From a virus: DNA of 64,000 nucleotides. Where the stretch lies: positions 1 to 64,000 of the IMG/VR virus record IMGVR_UViG_3300046834_000025; one strand, given 5' to 3'. The position numbers were made by a program, and so were the translations under genes. The notes under the pieces are model-generated. The model saw nothing but the letters and a program-made list of their open reading frames with translations. It was not told the origin of the DNA and searched no databases. Shown here piece after piece: positions 1-7,007 of this stretch (position 1 is its first letter; each line of letters begins with the position of its first letter).

Positions 1-82
1 CGAGAGTGTCATCTCCGACTTCGACTTCGTCCCACTTCTTCCATCCATCACGCGTCAGGATGCGTGAGCGGAGAGGTGTGCA
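1..82 (-). mobile_element. Intein/Hint domain N-terminus (block A), partial
   Basis: CTPLRSRILTRDGWKKWDEVEVGDDTL starting at Cys840 matches the C-x-P-xxx-ILT-xx-GWK...VGD intein start pattern. Confidence 0.75.
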
Positions 83-2599
83 GTACCCGCCGACATCGAT
101 GTTCGCGTGAACCTTGATGCGCTCGATGCCATTGTCAGAGTACCAGGACTCGAGGGTACTGGCGAGTTCTGTTGCCAGCCCACCACCCTGGAAGTTCTCT
201 TCGACGACAAAGTACACGTTGTCGAGTTCCCTGTCCCCCAAGCGGAATGTGCGATCGATGCTGCCGTACATCTTGCTGTCGCCGAATGACCAGCCGATCT
301 CGATGTTGCCGTAGTTGTCGACAGAGAAGTTCTTGAGCTGAGCCTCGAAGGGAAGGTTCAGTTCCTCCATGACGGCGTTGATGCGCGCGTTCATCCCCAG
401 CTTGAACTCATGCGTCAGCTTGGGATCAAGCTTGCCGGTCGACTCGTAGCCGTCCATCAAGTCTCGCAGGATGTTCTCTGTCGCAGCGATGATCTCTTCC
501 CGCGAGCGAATGTCGGACGCGTCCAGCGGGTCGATAGAGAGCATCTTAGAGTGGTAGTGCACCTTCTCGAACGCCTCGTCCAGAGACGCGATGTCCCACT
601 CCACCGGGTCATTGGCCGGGTCATAGATCGCATACTGCCCGCCTTCCTCGAAGATGCGATAGCCCTTCTCGTCGGCGTAGGCTGGGTCATCGCTGTTCGG
701 GTCCGTGATGACCTTCCAGCCTGCGGGCATCTTGGGGAGTTCCAGGTCTCCGAACCCGATGTCTGACTCTTCCTTCTTGGTCAGGTCAGTTTCCTCGTTG
801 AACAAGCTCCAGTCCCTACTCCCCAAGTCGCTGATGCGATCTGCAGCATCGCGGAGCAGGTACCAGGCATCCGAGCCACCATCCACACGTCCCTTGGCCG
901 TGTCCAGGTCGTAGCGCATCTCATCCAGCTCAACGCCAGCCTGGTCCGAGTCCTTCGCCGGATCGAAGAGCTCAGCAGCCTTGCGCGCGGTGCCGACAGG
1001 GCCATCAACCCGGTCGGCATCCTCGTAGTATGTCATCCCTAGCTTCTCGATCAGGTCGTCCATGATCTTGAGCGGGCTGTCCGTCCACCTACCGGAGAAA
1101 TCGCCGTTGCCGCGCGGGATGCGAATCTGGCCCTCGTCGAACCCGCTTGCGCGGAGAGAGGTTGCACCCAGAGGCCACTCCTGGCGCTCGTCTCCCCACC
1201 AGAGGCCGATACGGTCGAAGGGAACGCTCTTGACCTCGTTGATGGACGAGATCATGTCGCCGCTCGCCGGAACGTCGTATCCGATCGTGGTATGCGGCAG
1301 GTACTCTGGGTACTTGGTGAAGGTGCCCTGCTCGATCAGCGCGGCCACTTCGGGATCGTTGACCAGGGCTGAATTCACCTTTGCAAGACTGCCCTGCGGC
1401 TTGAAGAACCACACCAAGGCATTGTCGTCGCCTAGGCTGCCAACCTTGTCGACGACGGCCCGGAACGGTCGCGTGGACTCGGCTGTACGCTCGCAGAGAC
1501 CAGCCAGGTACGGTCGCATGTCGGCAAGCGCCGGAGCGCCGTCGCCGTCCATGTGACCCAGGTAGGCTAGCGTTGCGTGCGTCTCCTCCATCGACTTTCG
1601 GTCTGCGGGTGAGCCTGCCTCTGGCAGCATCACGATACAGACACTCGTGTCCAGGTCGTCGTGCGGGTTGCCCGCTGCCGTCAGGGTCTTGGGGTCGTCA
1701 GCACCCACAATGGTGCAACGACACGAAATCACCTCGTGTGCCGGACCTGCCGGGTCACCAGGGAACTGCAGCATGGACTCGCCGACCTTGAACGGGTGGA
1801 ACAGCGGCACTACCTGCCCGTCTGCTTCTCTATGGCTGTCTCTGGTTCGGCTATCCTTAGTAGCCATCCACCTCTTGTGAGTGCGGCCTTCGGCACCAAG
1901 CGCGGCAAGAGAACCCGAATTCCATGCCGAAGTACTTTCCGTCCTAGCTATGCGAGTTGCCCTTGTCTTCCAGTCACCCTGGTGCTCCATGATCTTGTCG
2001 ACGGCATCGGCACGAACAGACTGCCAGATCTTCACTGCCGGATCGTTGTCGCGGGCACGGTCGCGGTTCGGGCTGCCAGGCTTGCCGAGTGGATCGAGGA
2101 TCTTATCGATCTCGTCTTCAGCAAGCTGCTTCTGCTTGCGCCAGTACTCCTTGTCCGGCTCCCAGGATAGCCGCTCTGCGATGTCGCGGGCCTGCTCCTC
2201 GATCGTCCACCCTCCAAGCGCGCCTGCACTCAGAGTGTGTCGAATCTGTTCGAAGGCAGCCTCGGGAATCTCGGGCAGAGACGCGCGGCTCAAGCGGTCG
2301 CGAACTCGTGAGATGTGGGTCGCCATTGCCTCAGAACGAGCGATCATGCTCACATCGTTCGGGTTGCCGCCGTAGGCTGCTTTCCAAGTGCTCTCGATGT
2401 GTTCGGTAAGCTCCTGGTTGACCTCCTCCGACCACCAGTTCAACAGAACGCCGAGAGCCAGAACAGGTTGTGCGTTGTCGGTGCGACCGGAGCGCATCGC
2501 AGCGAGCACAGCATCCAGGACGCGGACCAGGAAGTCTTTGGTACTCTCATCAACGACAGTCGAGAGGTCCTTCTCGGCGGCATCAAGATTGGATGGCAT
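1..2599 (-). CDS. MuF-like minor head protein fused to 2H phosphoesterase, GNAT and intein (runs off window start)
   Basis: Hand-translated open frame from ATG 2599 to position 1, absent from the ORF track because it has no stop. MuF motif KRWMATKDSRTRDSH...FPGDPAGPAHEVISCRC; HAT and HTT motifs; FQGGGLATEL...HANIDVGGY; then CTPLRSRILTRDGWK. Confidence 0.85.
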   Translation of the reverse strand, partial: MPSNLDAAEKDLSTVVDESTKDFLVRVLDAVLAAMRSGRTDNAQPVLALGVLLNWWSEEVNQELTEHIESTWKAAYGGNPNDVSMIARSEAMATHISRVRDRLSRASLPEIPEAAFEQIRHTLSAGALGGWTIEEQARDIAERLSWEPDKEYWRKQKQLAEDEIDKILDPLGKPGSPNRDRARDNDPAVKIWQSVRADAVDKIMEHQGDWKTRATRIARTESTSAWNSGSLAALGAEGRTHKRWMATKDSRTRDSHREADGQVVPLFHPFKVGESMLQFPGDPAGPAHEVISCRCTIVGADDPKTLTAAGNPHDDLDTSVCIVMLPEAGSPADRKSMEETHATLAYLGHMDGDGAPALADMRPYLAGLCERTAESTRPFRAVVDKVGSLGDDNALVWFFKPQGSLAKVNSALVNDPEVAALIEQGTFTKYPEYLPHTTIGYDVPASGDMISSINEVKSVPFDRIGLWWGDERQEWPLGATSLRASGFDEGQIRIPRGNGDFSGRWTDSPLKIMDDLIEKLGMTYYEDADRVDGPVGTARKAAELFDPAKDSDQAGVELDEMRYDLDTAKGRVDGGSDAWYLLRDAADRISDLGSRDWSLFNEETDLTKKEESDIGFGDLELPKMPAGWKVITDPNSDDPAYADEKGYRIFEEGGQYAIYDPANDPVEWDIASLDEAFEKVHYHSKMLSIDPLDASDIRSREEIIAATENILRDLMDGYESTGKLDPKLTHEFKLGMNARINAVMEELNLPFEAQLKNFSVDNYGNIEIGWSFGDSKMYGSIDRTFRLGDRELDNVYFVVEENFQGGGLATELASTLESWYSDNGIERIKVHANIDVGGYCTPLRSRILTRDGWKKWDEVEVGDDTL

Positions 2600-2966
2600 C
2601 TCTGATCCGCCTCTCGAGTTCTTCGAACTTGTGTGGCTGCATCGAGAATACGAGTTCTCTTACGTAGCCATCGAGTAGGAGAGTCAACTTGCGTTCCTGC
2701 AGGGAGCAACAACCATGCTCGTTGACCATGCGAGGGAGGACGTTCCAGGCTCCCGCCAGGGCTGCTTCGACGTGATGCGGTTCTGGCTTCCAGACCGTAT
2801 GTACGTCGCTCCAGTCCATGCCACTGCGTTGCATCGCACCGAACCGGGCGCGGCCATCTCTAGCAACACGTTTCCCGATGAGCTCTAGTGCTCTCATCAC
2901 AGCCATGTCCGCTGCAGCACACAAGGCTGCAGCGTCATTGTTAGCCGTTGACCGGGCCAGAGCCAC
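2583..2966 (-). CDS. Hypothetical head-module protein
   Basis: GTG with AAGGAG RBS overlapping the portal end; VMRALELIGKR segment. Confidence 0.7.
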   Translation of the reverse strand: MALARSTANNDAAALCAAADMAVMRALELIGKRVARDGRARFGAMQRSGMDWSDVHTVWKPEPHHVEAALAGAWNVLPRMVNEHGCCSLQERKLTLLLDGYVRELVFSMQPHKFEELERRIRDAIQS

Positions 2967-4653
2967 TGGGTGCTCCTTCCGCCGCAACCGGTGGTCTCGC
3001 ACCGTTGGTGGGTCTGGCGGGAGCAGGCGTGCCAGCGACTGCAGGTCGGGCGCCAGGGACGGCAGGTGCACCGTTGGCTGACGCCTGTGGCGGTGGTGCC
3101 TGCGGGGTATTGCCTGGTGCCAGCGGCTTCAGAGTGTCCGGCACGCGCTGACTGCTGACCACATCTGCGCCAGACTCCGGCGTGCCGTCCAGAACTGCCA
3201 TGACGGATCTCACGATCTCTGGCATATTGTCGATCAGTTGCGGGTTACCCTGCGCGATGCTGAGCGCGATCTCGATTGCCTGTGCTGCGCTGTTCGGCGC
3301 ATCCGTCTCTTCGAAGCCCGCCGCCTCTCGGAGAGCCTTGTCGCTGATCGCGCCGACCGCGTGAAGGGTGCTGGCATCCTCGAGACGGTTTGGCCGCTGG
3401 ACCAGGTGAGAGACATCGAACTTGAGGGTGTAGCTGTCCGGGTCAGGATCGCCCTGCTGCTTCTTGATAGGCCGGTAGAAGCCGTGGGTGAGAGCATCCG
3501 CGATCAGGTCGAGACGCGGGACGACGTGGGTCTGAATGACTTCGTCGCGGACTAACCACATTCCCCAGTGGTTTGCGTCTCCCATGCCTTGCAAGAGTTC
3601 GGGAGGAGCGTCCAGACCCAGGCCAAGACGCCTGATCGCTTCCTCCCGAAGGCCGTGTGTCTCCTTGTCGAATGGCGTCGAGAACGTGTCGTAGCGAATC
3701 TTGGAGATTGAGTCGTCGGGTGCGCCCATCAAGACCGGCACGATCGCAGAAGCGTTGCTACGGTCCTCGATCGGAAGCAACATGCCCTGCATGATCGCGT
3801 TCAGAACAGGGTTCTCGGCGAAGGACTGCTGTTCGGCGGAGGATGGTGCGACCTTGGCGCTGTTCAGGATTGAGTTCGGAATCCAGTACACACCTGCTCC
3901 GGCCAACCGAGAGTCGATCTGCGCACTCACGTGCTGCGTGAGACCGACAAGCTCTCGCAGGACCGGCAAGCAGGAGATGACCGGACTGTCAGCCTGTTCC
4001 CACTCGGCAGGATGCGGATCCCAGATACGCTCGAGGTAGATCTTGTCCTCTTCGTACTCTTCGCCGCGAATCTGGACCCTGCCGTTGGTGGCCTTGACCT
4101 CGAGCTTGGAGGCGATGAACCAGATCGTGTCTTCGCCGGTCGCCGCGCCTGCGTCCGGCGCAATGGTCGAGCCGTCCAAGATCTCCTTGAGTTCCTTGCC
4201 GACCGGCACGCCGACCAGGTAGCCAGAGCCTGCCACGTAGATGTTGAGGCTCAAGCGTTCCACCATCTGCGGCGTGATGAGCGCGATGAGCGGGTCTTCG
4301 TCCTCGCTGTCGTCGACGCGTGCGCCGTCCTTCTCCACGTAGAGGATGGCCTGCGCGCATCGACCGGAGATCGCGTTGGCGATGTAGCGTAGCTCGCCAA
4401 CCTCGTTGTACATCCGCCAGACTTCCTCGTCAGCGGACGTAGAGGTTGTCGTCTGCATGGCGGAGACGGCACCTTTGGCCGTGCGCTTAGCCTTGCCCGT
4501 CACCACGCGGACAGCGGCACCTACGAGGGAGGGTGGAGGCGAGATGGCGGTGTTGTCACTGGTCGGCGCGTTGTACGACCAGGCTGGCGGGTTGACGTGT
4601 ACAGGTTGAGGCTGTGTGCGCGCCCGTCGGCGCTGCTCGAACCAACTCGCCAT
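2941..4653 (-). CDS. Portal protein
   Basis: 570 aa between terminase and MuF; RIWDPHP, SRLAGAG, IRRLGLGLDAPPELL, NHWGMW motifs of actinophage portals. Confidence 0.88.
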   Translation of the reverse strand: MASWFEQRRRARTQPQPVHVNPPAWSYNAPTSDNTAISPPPSLVGAAVRVVTGKAKRTAKGAVSAMQTTTSTSADEEVWRMYNEVGELRYIANAISGRCAQAILYVEKDGARVDDSEDEDPLIALITPQMVERLSLNIYVAGSGYLVGVPVGKELKEILDGSTIAPDAGAATGEDTIWFIASKLEVKATNGRVQIRGEEYEEDKIYLERIWDPHPAEWEQADSPVISCLPVLRELVGLTQHVSAQIDSRLAGAGVYWIPNSILNSAKVAPSSAEQQSFAENPVLNAIMQGMLLPIEDRSNASAIVPVLMGAPDDSISKIRYDTFSTPFDKETHGLREEAIRRLGLGLDAPPELLQGMGDANHWGMWLVRDEVIQTHVVPRLDLIADALTHGFYRPIKKQQGDPDPDSYTLKFDVSHLVQRPNRLEDASTLHAVGAISDKALREAAGFEETDAPNSAAQAIEIALSIAQGNPQLIDNMPEIVRSVMAVLDGTPESGADVVSSQRVPDTLKPLAPGNTPQAPPPQASANGAPAVPGARPAVAGTPAPARPTNGARPPVAAEGAPSGSGPVNG

Positions 4654-4656
4654 GTC

Positions 4657-5406
4657 TCATATTACCACGGCATCTGCCAGTTGAGTGCGAGTGGCAAGGT
4701 CGAAGATCGTACTGTCTACACGGTTGCTCTTTCTGATGTTGCAGCGGAGGTGTGCTAGCTGTACGTTTGCAAGGATGTCAGGACCATCGAGGCTGATCGG
4801 TAGAACGTGATCGATCGAGGGTGAGGCAGGATCAGGATGCTTGAGCTTGAGATCGACCGGCTCACCACAGAGACCGCAGTCGAGGCCATCTCGATCAATG
4901 ATGTCTTGCCTCGTGTAAGGCTCAGTCGGAACGGCTGCCTTGTTGGCTCTGCGCTTTGCCCTCCAGGATCGCACCTTGTCGGGATTCGCTAGCTTGTATC
5001 GCTTCTGTTGTGCCAGCGCCTGCTCTTTGTTTGCAGCGTACCATGCCTGAGCTTGTACAAGTAGGCGATCTGCATTCAGTGCGTAGTAGGCTCTCTTGCA
5101 CGGTATGCACTCACCATTGGTATTACGCTCGTTCATACCACATCGGTCACAAGGTTGTGACTTCCGACATGGTATGCAAGTTCCAGCTACAGTGCGTTCT
5201 GTTGCACCGCATGTCTTGCAAGGTCGAGCCTGCAGGCAGGATACACACTTGCCATCTGACAGTCGTTCAGTTGAGCCACATTGCTTGCAAGGAGGGGGGT
5301 TGAGCCTCATCTGCTCTCGGTACGCACGATTGAAGGCTAGCTTGCAGCTTCGACATTCACCGCTCTTGTACCATTCCGTTCCCTTGCAGCGCAAACACTC
5401 TTTCAT
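4657..5406 (-). CDS. HNH endonuclease with CxxC repeats
   Basis: CGLCGE...SIDHVLP...NVQLAHLRCNIRK; ATG overlaps the terminase stop. Confidence 0.88.
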   Translation of the reverse strand: MKECLRCKGTEWYKSGECRSCKLAFNRAYREQMRLNPPPCKQCGSTERLSDGKCVSCLQARPCKTCGATERTVAGTCIPCRKSQPCDRCGMNERNTNGECIPCKRAYYALNADRLLVQAQAWYAANKEQALAQQKRYKLANPDKVRSWRAKRRANKAAVPTEPYTRQDIIDRDGLDCGLCGEPVDLKLKHPDPASPSIDHVLPISLDGPDILANVQLAHLRCNIRKSNRVDSTIFDLATRTQLADAVVI

Positions 5407-7007
5407 CCGCGCCTCGTGAACCGAGGAATCGTGGGGTGCCTGGACGGGCCGTACCGACCACGGCTGCGCTGAGGCGTGCCCGCCGTGGGAGGTGCCGCGT
5501 AGGACCTCGAGACATGTCCCTGCGGGACGAACGGAGTCGTGGTGCCGGTGCTCCACATCCGGCGCAGGGCTTGAGCGGTGCAGTCGATCTGGTCGTCGTG
5601 GGCCGAGTTCGGGAAGTTGCGAGCCTCGCTGAGGAAGTCCGGCAACCAGTCTGCCTCTGCCGGGAGGAAGACGTGCTTGCTCTCCACGGTCGGACTGATC
5701 GAACGGGCTCGTGCTTCCTTGGATTCAGTGGGGTTGATGGCGATCAGGCCGGGAATCTCAGTGGTGAGGGTGTCGATGACGGCGGTCCCGTTCGCCTTGT
5801 CCTCGATCAGGTGCTCATGCACGCCGACGCCTTCGGGCAGCCAGAGGTTGCAGGAGTTGACGAATGAGCGCATCTCGGCAATCGACTCCGTGAACGTGAG
5901 CCTCTTCCTGATCTGGCGGAGCAGGAATCGGTCGGGTCCGGCGCTAGCCCAGAGTTGGCCGACCACGTAGTCGCTCGAGGACAAGTTCTTGAATGCCATG
6001 TCCCAACTCGTGAGCACGCGGTCGAACTCTGGCAAGTCGTTCTGTGTGCGCCAGAACTGCCACCAGTCGTTCGAGAAGATGTTCCCTGATGCAGGAGAAG
6101 GAGACTGCTGAAAAAGTGCGGACCACGCGTAGCTGCCGACTGCCTGCCGGATGTCGGCCCACCGTGCGAGGGCTTCCTGCGCCGTCTCGATCACGATCGG
6201 GGACAGTAGAGGCTCACCCTCCTTGCGGCCCAACACATCGTCACCTTCGGCCAGGGCTGGAAAGCTGATAACCTCCCACTGTGCGGGGTCGCCGTCATAC
6301 TCAGGGGAGAGAAGCCTGCCCACGAAATCGTCTTCGTGCCAACGAGTCTGAATAGCGATGACCAGCGACGGCGGGTGAAGACGGGTACGAGAGTTTGCAG
6401 TCCACCAGTCCCAGACGAAGTTTCGGATCGTCGGGCTGTGCGCATCAGCGAAGTCTTTCGTGATATCGTCGAGCACCATTACCTTTGCACCACGACCAGT
6501 GACACTCTCTCGGATTGAGCGACTCAAGACGACACCACGACGGTCGATGGTTTGGCCGTCCTTGACGCCCTTCAAGGCCGGTCGCTGGACCTCCCACTCT
6601 TTTGCTGCGCCTGCGTCCTTGGCGACTTGTAGGTCGAGGGAAGGCCCGTTGACGTCGATTGCGTTTCTGATCTGTCTGCCCCACCCTGCAGCAAGAGACG
6701 GATCGTGGGACAGCAGCATGATCTCCCAGGACGGGTGCTTGTGCAGCACCCATAAAGGTAGGTACACACTGGTAAGCATGGACTTGCCCGTCCTCGGGGG
6801 GAGACTCACTGCAAGATAACGACTCTTGCCTTGCTCGACATCGTGAAGCGCTGCGGCCAGCCGGTCAGACAAGTACTTGAGATGGTCGCGAACGACGTAG
6901 CCGCTGTCCAAGGACAGGGCTAGCTCGAGGGGGTTGGACCAGGTTTGCTTGGTTCCCAACTGAGAGAAGATCTCCTCTTGGAGGGAATCGATCCAATCAG
7001 CGCTCAC
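5403..7007 (-). CDS. terL: Terminase large subunit
   Basis: PPRTGKS Walker A, VLDD Walker B, TRWHEDD, SWDMAFK, IEDKANG, HDDQID nuclease motifs. Confidence 0.93.
   Translation of the reverse strand: MSADWIDSLQEEIFSQLGTKQTWSNPLELALSLDSGYVVRDHLKYLSDRLAAALHDVEQGKSRYLAVSLPPRTGKSMLTSVYLPLWVLHKHPSWEIMLLSHDPSLAAGWGRQIRNAIDVNGPSLDLQVAKDAGAAKEWEVQRPALKGVKDGQTIDRRGVVLSRSIRESVTGRGAKVMVLDDITKDFADAHSPTIRNFVWDWWTANSRTRLHPPSLVIAIQTRWHEDDFVGRLLSPEYDGDPAQWEVISFPALAEGDDVLGRKEGEPLLSPIVIETAQEALARWADIRQAVGSYAWSALFQQSPSPASGNIFSNDWWQFWRTQNDLPEFDRVLTSWDMAFKNLSSSDYVVGQLWASAGPDRFLLRQIRKRLTFTESIAEMRSFVNSCNLWLPEGVGVHEHLIEDKANGTAVIDTLTTEIPGLIAINPTESKEARARSISPTVESKHVFLPAEADWLPDFLSEARNFPNSAHDDQIDCTAQALRRMWSTGTTTPFVPQGHVSRSYAAPPTAGTPQRSRGRYGPSRHPTIPRFTRRG

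Follow-up and report, generated by a model that had tools for sequence, protein, structure and literature searches.

A MuF-type phage head protein with a 2H phosphoesterase cassette and a GNAT-like domain split by a predicted intein

The IMG/VR virus record IMGVR_UViG_3300046834_000025 is a linear sequence of 77,833 nt with a CheckV completeness of 94%, and its bases 1-64000, hereafter the window, were analysed here with a focus on the long minus-strand gene that lies at their very beginning. The gene encodes a phage head protein in which a MuF module is joined, in one reading frame, to a 2H phosphoesterase domain and a GNAT-like domain, and the latter is broken by a predicted intein. We consider it probable, with some reserve, that the product is a MuF-anchored polyvalent head protein, which is predicted to be taken up by the capsid and delivered to the host with the 2H and GNAT-like domains as its enzymatic cargo. 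The gene and its parts are listed below.

2..2599, minus strand: 5' part of the gene for the MuF polyvalent head protein, 866 codons, its 3' end lost at the start of the record
1700..2599, minus strand: MuF or head-morphogenesis module, residues 1-300 (from PF04233, phrog_2468 and the orthologue P0012)
1142..1672, minus strand: 2H phosphoesterase cassette, residues 310-486 (from PF13563, a structure model and structure matches)
1082..1141, minus strand: junction motif region, residues 487-506, shared with a protease-scaffold protein
425..1081, minus strand: acidic, mostly helical middle part plus a small module, residues 507-725, with no assigned function
83..424, minus strand: N-extein part of the GNAT-like domain, residues 726-839, with motif A (QGGGLA) at bases 173-190
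2..82, minus strand: first 27 residues of a LAGLIDADG intein, residues 840-866 (Cys840 onward), cut by the record end

By a listing of open reading frames (ORFs) that allowed open ends, and by translation, the frame at 2..2599 runs over 866 codons from an ATG and is free of stops down to base 1, with a Shine-Dalgarno-like GAGAGG box about 10 nt 5' of the ATG. An earlier reading made from the letters of the DNA (the sequence-only reading) had noticed an uninterrupted frame of more than 860 codons, which agrees with this result, and the strings it quoted, FDRIGLWWGDERQEWPL, FDEGQIRIPRGNGDFSGRWT, FQGGGLATEL and HANIDVGGY, are all in the translation. It had also taken the fusion for a complete architecture, and in this respect it has to be revised: base 1 of the window is the end of the record, hence part of the gene is missing, and an intein interrupts the GNAT-like domain.

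The N-terminal 300 residues belong to head-morphogenesis families. The Pfam model PF04233 (Phage_Mu_F) matches residues 199-297 with 46.5 bits against a cut-off of 29.6, phrog_2468 of PHROGs extends over residues 3-300 with an E value of 3e-40, and TIGR01641 of NCBIfam reaches 32.4 bits, which is under its cut-off of 39.65. The MuF domain had been drawn to about base 1700 in the sequence-only reading, and the match above the Pfam cut-off and the module at 1700..2599 bear this out. The neighbourhood in the record places the gene beside the portal in the head module, the order being terminase, HNH endonuclease, portal, the MuF head gene, and then the protease-scaffold and major capsid proteins. 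With MuF, 2H and GNAT-like domains in one frame of the head module, the protein has the composition of a polyvalent protein, and the proposal of a MuF-anchored protein with several enzyme domains stands. Its closest orthologue is a protein of 863 aa, P0012, which has neither the intein nor the 2H domain; it is 61% identical to the MuF part over residues 6-309 and 37% identical over residues 487-840, so that the middle region, for which residues 507-725 gave no family match in Pfam or PHROGs, is conserved as well.

For the 2H domain, PF13563 (2_5_RNA_ligase2) matches residues 340-446 with 27.5 bits against a cut-off of 27, and the same model reaches 30.9 bits over bases 1196-1582 in a genome-wide search. 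The two HxT motifs lie exactly where they had been placed before, HAT with His341 at bases 1577-1579 and HTT with His436 at bases 1292-1294, and the histidine and threonine of both motifs are nearly invariant across 106 aligned homologues. From this alignment AlphaFold2 (AF2) predicted the 2H fold that had been expected for the region, with a mean predicted local distance difference test score (pLDDT) of 85.6 and a predicted template modelling score (pTM) of 0.81. While a phmmer search of the domain against PDB sequences gave no match, the model itself found its own kind: the top 40 entries of Foldseek are 2H enzymes, including E. coli LigT (6e-6), Arabidopsis CPDase, YjcG, Usb1, rotavirus VP3 and AKAP18, and ranks 1-45 of VIA-align are all 2H-type entries. 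As far as model and alignment can tell, the 2H fold and its catalytic motifs are established as real, and the site looks intact.

What the model does not favour is a close kinship with the anti-CBASS nuclease Acb1, which the sequence-only reading had brought forward. In VIA-align the highest Z scores are those of the plant cyclic nucleotide phosphodiesterase 1jh6 (12.8, with a root-mean-square deviation of 2.8 over 143 aligned residues), TT0787 (12.6), YjcG (12.5), Usb1 (12.2), LigT (11.7) and VP3 (11.5), followed by the Burkholderia phage BCSR5 phosphodiesterase (9.9), and Acb1 (7T26) comes with 8.9 over 122 aligned residues at 19% identity. The Acb1 Pfam model (PF23474) gives 13.2 bits against a cut-off of 27, and its match spans no more than 24 residues, which surround the second HxT motif. 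The kinship is thus weak, a Z score of 8.9 standing against 11.5-12.8 for CPDase, LigT, Usb1 and VP3. The literature on MuF together with Acb1, and on the BCSR5 phosphodiesterase, yielded nothing relevant.

Since residues 310-486 have no counterpart in P0012, where the alignment resumes at the junction motif, the 2H domain is to be regarded as an inserted cassette. The same kind of cassette is widely distributed: a 2H domain of this type is present in at least 167 actinophage-type head proteins, 700-1200 aa in length, and they are named in their sources as capsid maturation protease, MuF fusion or portal, among them the capsid protease/MuF fusions of Microbacterium phages. In gp23 of Microbacterium phage Nike the 2H subfamily follows directly after MuF, with 31% identity over residues 216-520 (E 1e-30). 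More generally, many other phages also join 2H and GNAT-like domain types to one of their head proteins, be it MuF, minor capsid protein 2 or portal, and the cargo varies strongly among the close relatives of the head protein. Two related contigs encode orthologous MuF proteins of 1,469-1,628 aa (L068 3308-8194 and L069 8001-12410) in which a papain-fold glutamine deamidase toxin domain (PF15644) replaces the 2H and GNAT-like domains. ParB_N also matches the MuF protein of L068, with 18.4 bits and so below its cut-off of 26.3, and in L069 the next gene after the MuF gene is a 2H-containing one of 529 aa, preceded by a variant of the junction motif, H-P-R-G...G-G-Q-F.

We regard the fold of the domain that the intein interrupts as probably GNAT. 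Motif A (Q/R-x-x-G-x-G/A, which in GNATs follows strand beta-4) appears as QGGGLA at residues 804-809 and is conserved in nearly all members, with the counterparts RGQGFA, QGSGFA or QGSGIG in P0005, P0006, P0008 and L071. Acetyltransf_1 of Pfam matches residues 796-831 with 17.8 bits against a cut-off of 20.7 (E 0.004), and four divergent members, this protein included, give 17.8, 19.1, 13.9 and 16.7 bits against the same cut-off (E 0.0016-0.07, being 0.0016 in P0003, a close relative of the 3' part of the gene, and 0.009 in L071), always in the motif-A segment. GNAT models of NCBIfam are weak, with E 0.16 for the present protein (P0001) and 9e-4 over 87 residues for a homologue from Microbispora. 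A family profile searched against PDB sequences has GNATs in 10 of its 13 matches, the best with E 0.01; the nearest cluster of the ESM Atlas has a score of 0.94, and 20% of its members carry Acetyltransf_1; an alignment by hhalign to E. coli RimI reaches a probability of only 25%. In an AF2 model of P0003 the extein parts are of low confidence (pLDDT 40-65), and their strand-strand-strand-strand-helix-strand order fits GNAT. Of the earlier claim of a GNAT-like domain, motif A and the string HANIDVGGY are in place, and the identity of the domain is carried by sub-threshold matches and a fold model of this low pLDDT. A Microbispora prophage has the module joined to minor capsid protein 2, and it occurs on a lambda-type portal as well, so that it is a recurrent cargo of head proteins.

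The predicted intein begins immediately after HANIDVGGY. Residues 840-866, opening with C-T-P-L-R-S-R-I-L-T-R-D-G-W, are identical to residues 97-123 of P0003, in which the insert can be followed to its end: it has 304 residues (C97-N400), ends in L-T-G-N and is followed by T401 in T-W-A-K-L-G-F. Residues of intein type are the N-terminal C97, T159..H162 of block B, N400, and T401 as Thr+1, and in 71 sequences C97, T..H162, D221-G222 (LAGLIDADG), W378-C379 and T398-G399-N400 are nearly invariant. When P0003 was searched against a library of 1.84 billion proteins, there were 2,492 significant matches, and most of the best 150 cover just residues ~96-401 and lie inside many unrelated host proteins. 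An AF2 model of residues 100-400 has a pLDDT of 90-98 and the Hint plus LAGLIDADG fold; its Foldseek matches are the homing-endonuclease inteins TliVMA (E 3e-11), PI-SceI and PI-PfuI, and I-DmoI. Sequence searches of P0003 against Pfam and PDB, phmmer included, did not detect the intein, and its identity is therefore derived from the boundaries, the empty allele and the fold. On these grounds of sequence and model, a class-1-type LAGLIDADG intein, predicted to be self-splicing, splits the GNAT-like domain in the conserved segment G-G-Y/T-W-A-x-x-G-F (the slash marks the insertion site), the equivalent of the GNAT alpha-4 region; as it interrupts the domain, the latter should be neither complete nor active before splicing.

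Alleles without the intein are found in relatives and in soil. P0012 reads H-A-N-I-D-V-G-G-Y-T-W-A-R-L-G-F with no insert, L071 and L073 are likewise intein-free, and the insert is also missing in the Microbispora prophage protein and in the portal fusion. In soil run X3 the match of one contig to the window stops at base 83, with which the Tyr839 codon ends, and 50 other letters follow, of which a 30-letter consensus translates to T-W-A-K-L-G-F-E-V-D, that is, the empty allele; a second X3 contig covers bases 1-112 and extends 205 nt past the window start. Occupied and empty alleles thus coexist in the same soil sample, and this coexistence is the likely reason why the assembly broke at the record end. 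The intein stands at the same site in P0005, P0006 and P0008, which have other architectures. P0008 (1447 aa) is made up of DUF2786, DUF7168, a GNAT-like module with the intein at this site, and the head domain of a CCA-type poly(A) polymerase (nucleotidyltransferase), a layout from which it follows that the intein-bearing module travels between polyprotein architectures.

With regard to the missing 3' part, P0003 (595 aa) is its only close relative, 87% identical over residues 744-866, and it is also the single match of residues 300-866 in the protein library. P0003 and P0012 stop at the same homologous point, about 195 residues beyond the intein site, from which we estimate by sequence comparison that the whole gene probably encodes about 839 + 304 + 195 residues. 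Other searches for relatives gave no match for the whole head protein among viral contigs, no homologue of residues 310-480 among library proteins of near lengths, and nothing beyond the L069 contig again in a metagenome scan based on P0012. The other end of the record, outside the window, begins with a 5'-open ORF of 1095 codons, followed by the major capsid protein, the major tail protein and an adaptor.

Record 74546-77833 (L002 10546-13833), minus strand, outside the window: protease-scaffold protein P0002, 1095 aa, 5'-truncated

The start of P0002 falls within a capsid-maturation-protease domain (phrog_859 positions 630-769, and phrog_18402), and when it is aligned with the homologue from a related contig, where the protease-scaffold has a gene to itself (L069 14442-), P0002 begins opposite residue 394. 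The C-terminal half of the maturation protease is followed in P0002 by the junction motif, then by modules of ~90-100 residues, which are duplicated in tandem and of three kinds, and by a long acidic tail. A possible reading of both record ends as one giant gene was rejected, for P0002 is in another phase and represents the C-terminal end of a protease-scaffold protein with its own gene, and a continuation of the head gene into P0002 was rejected also because P0003 and P0012 end ~195 residues past the intein site. The gap between the two record ends is at least about 2.6 kb, and it would be expected to hold about 277 further codons of the intein, about 195 of the C-extein and, of the protease-scaffold gene, the first 390 or so. 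A similarity of the small middle module (residues 616-690) to the repeats of P0002 is marginal, and we do not claim it.

Between the 2H cassette and the middle region lies the motif Q-I-R-I-P-R-G-N-G-D-F-S-G-R-W (residues 491-505). A regular-expression scan of the 77.8-kb record found the motif exactly twice, here and at record positions 77351-77386 in the protease-scaffold ORF, where the copy reads Q-W-R-V-P-R-G-N-E-R-G-G-Q-W and stands just past the protease domain of P0002. The motif has the same place after MuF in L004, L006, L067-L069 and P0012; L067 and L069 have a copy behind the protease domain too. Three low-depth soil contigs keep the motif and diverge directly upstream (break at 1125) or downstream (break at 1093); in soil runs X1-X3 a 33-nt core of the motif (1093-1125) is shared, and the sequence directly upstream or downstream of it differs. 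Further soil contigs, with divergent alleles, part from the window at 1362, within the 2H domain, and at 246, 298 and 330, within the GNAT-like domain. These breaks suggest a population of module variants, and the distribution of the motif in the sequences compared fits a module boundary serving processing, loading and/or recombination. More tentatively, it is possible that Q-x-R-[VI]-P-[RK]-G-N-x(3-4)-G-[RQ]-W, over 15-20 residues, is a dedicated processing or capsid-loading signal, whose conserved DNA may also act as a recombination joint for the exchange of cargo. If this were true, cargo loading in this phage clade would obey a simple and portable address-and-cut rule. We did not find such a junction motif described in Iyer et al. 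2017 (PMC5512222).

Taking these parts together, the mechanism we propose for the polyvalent head protein would run as follows. The MuF part probably carries the protein into the procapsid, as expected from established MuF biology, since gp7 of SPP1 binds the portal at 1-2 copies per capsid (PMC5576092). The neighbouring maturation protease may then cut at the junction motif, and the cargo would be released into the host along with the DNA. For the GNAT-like domain to be whole, the intein must splice out and rebuild the ...GGY-TWAKLGF... helix; the 2H domain would most likely hydrolyse a 2',3'-cyclic or cyclic-oligonucleotide phosphodiester, either in defence second messengers or at RNA ends, and the spliced GNAT-like domain would most likely acetylate a host target. 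Fusions of this sort are known: Iyer et al. 2017 (PMC5512222) and 2022 (PMC9503650) described 2H and GNAT domains in polyvalent proteins as well as 2H domains fused to MuF or portal, and predicted that such proteins are packaged and injected, and act by degrading defence nucleotides or as RNases. Given that prediction of packaging and injection, the mechanism offered by the sequence-only reading restates a known idea.

Several points weigh against this proposal. Packaging into the virion, cleavage, injection, enzymatic activity and the substrate are what we infer from the analysis; the gene is incomplete in the record, its 3' part being deduced from the 87%-identical P0003; and the GNAT assignment, though probable, lies below every curated threshold, with low AF2 confidence for the extein. 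By the model comparisons the 2H domain is structurally nearer to the LigT/CPDase/Usb1 group than to Acb1, and for that reason nothing specific speaks for a role against cyclic-nucleotide signalling. In favour of the proposal, neither an RNA ligase (PF09414) nor RtcB was found in the record, which argues against a heal-and-seal pair for RNA repair; this absence is itself weak evidence because the record is only about 94% complete.

The healing of RNA ends is in fact the first alternative to be considered. Where host anticodon nucleases or ribotoxins have cut tRNA or mRNA, a packaged 2H domain would open the resulting 2',3'-cyclic phosphate ends for resealing by a host or phage ligase, and it would then be a repair enzyme rather than a degrader of signals. 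The best structural neighbours are of this kind (LigT, YjcG, TT0787 and plant CPDase, Z 11.7-12.8), as are the best Pfam and NCBIfam models, which are families of 2'-5' RNA ligase or RNA 2',3'-cyclic phosphodiesterase; besides the missing ligase and RtcB genes, Iyer et al. 2017 (PMC5512222) state that the 2H versions of polyvalent proteins never associate with RNA ligases, and we hold this explanation to be rather unlikely.

Less probable still is that the domains are toxic effectors which follow the logic of MuF polymorphic toxins and serve host shutdown or the killing of competitors, with no counter-defence involved, the 2H domain being an RNase like Usb1 and the GNAT domain an acetyltransferase that blocks translation. 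That sister phages bear the PF15644 glutamine deamidase toxin domain on the same MuF scaffold, that MuF-toxin fusions are widespread (PMC5576092), and that Usb1 is matched with Z 12.2 would all agree with it; no immunity gene was identified, the region past the gene being absent from the record, and no sequence feature separates a toxin from a counter-defence role. To a similarly low degree we credit the view that the extra domains act only in the producing cell or in head assembly, where they would be removed by cleavage and stay outside the capsid without ever being delivered. The sharing of the junction motif with the protease-scaffold protein is compatible with proteolytic removal during maturation, and in relatives the same kind of 2H domain is flanked by MuF and the maturation protease within a single chain, yet the cargo is highly variable among close relatives, a pattern that domains involved in conflicts typically show and assembly functions do not, and the same modules are fused to portal proteins. 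The reading as a delivered polyvalent protein is accordingly the one we prefer.

Compared with known systems, the polyvalent head protein resembles the proteins of Iyer et al. in its MuF anchor within the head module, in the several unrelated enzyme domains per chain, in a 2H domain without an RNA ligase partner, in GNAT as a recurrent cargo and in the shuffling of domains among close relatives, and it differs from them in that an intein splits the GNAT-like cargo, the 2H domain is a cassette present or absent relative to an orthologue, and a motif is shared with the protease-scaffold protein. The capsid maturation protease/MuF-like fusions of Microbacterium phages (Nike gp23, Hyperion, Squash and Namago) have the same 2H subfamily straight after MuF, with both HxT motifs kept and at the same position after the portal, although their annotations leave the 2H domain unnamed; they hold the protease in the same chain and have no GNAT-like module, whereas here and in L069 the protease-scaffold is a separate gene. 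Acb1 (PF23474; PDB 7T26/7T27) is likewise phage-encoded and shares the 2H fold with two HxT motifs, but this protein of ~150 aa is produced after infection and stands on its own, not fused to a head protein. MuF proteins with variable toxic C-termini were reported in temperate phages by Jamet et al. 2017 (PMC5576092), and the present protein is like them in its N-terminal MuF and variable C-terminal enzymatic domain, the sister phages with glutamine deamidase included; it carries several cargo domains and not one, and that paper mentions no 2H or acetyltransferase cargo. Inteins were reported in minor capsid proteins of actinophages (bioRxiv 10.1101/2025.01.02.630785), and the likeness extends to an intein within a MuF/SPP1-gp7-type minor capsid protein, to its sporadic presence and to intein-free alleles; in contrast to that survey, which gives only non-canonical homing-endonuclease arrangements in minor capsid proteins, the LAGLIDADG part is in frame here, and the intein sits in the GNAT-like cargo and not in MuF.

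The head protein thus joins the enzyme-carrying polyvalent head proteins that have already been described from phages, and is largely ordinary. No new kind of biology is opened by it, and it adds one well-documented case of enzyme cargo carried by the capsid; what it contributes are the intein together with the allele that lacks it, the finding that the 2H domain is a cassette, and the motif shared with the protease-scaffold protein. For a comparison with and without the 2H cassette, this phage and P0012 offer a natural pair; cultured phages of Microbacterium (Nike, Hyperion, Squash and others) are practical systems for the study of 2H cargo in virions and of its substrate.

As for the origin of the record, the best match of its major capsid protein is that of Microbacterium phage Hendrix with 39.5% identity, every match is an actinobacteriophage, and sequence of the record is also present in the soil metagenome runs X1-X4, so that the source is probably an uncultured soil phage distantly related to actinobacteriophages, with an actinobacterium as its probable host. 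The genes next to the head gene in the window are the following.

2941-4653, minus strand, plus a 162-codon piece at 2583-3071: portal
4657-5556, minus strand: HNH endonuclease, between the terminase large subunit and the portal
5403-7007, minus strand: terminase large subunit

The portal (2583-4653, minus strand) apparently lies in two overlapping frames, ORF 2941-4653 corresponding to positions 21-504 of phrog_776 and ORF 2583-3071 to positions 515-618. This implies a frame change of +1/-2 between about 3061 and 2972, and an indel introduced by assembly, a true frameshift or a portal that is really split could each explain it. The HNH endonuclease ORF overlaps that of the terminase by ~150 nt, and its true start is therefore probably further in.

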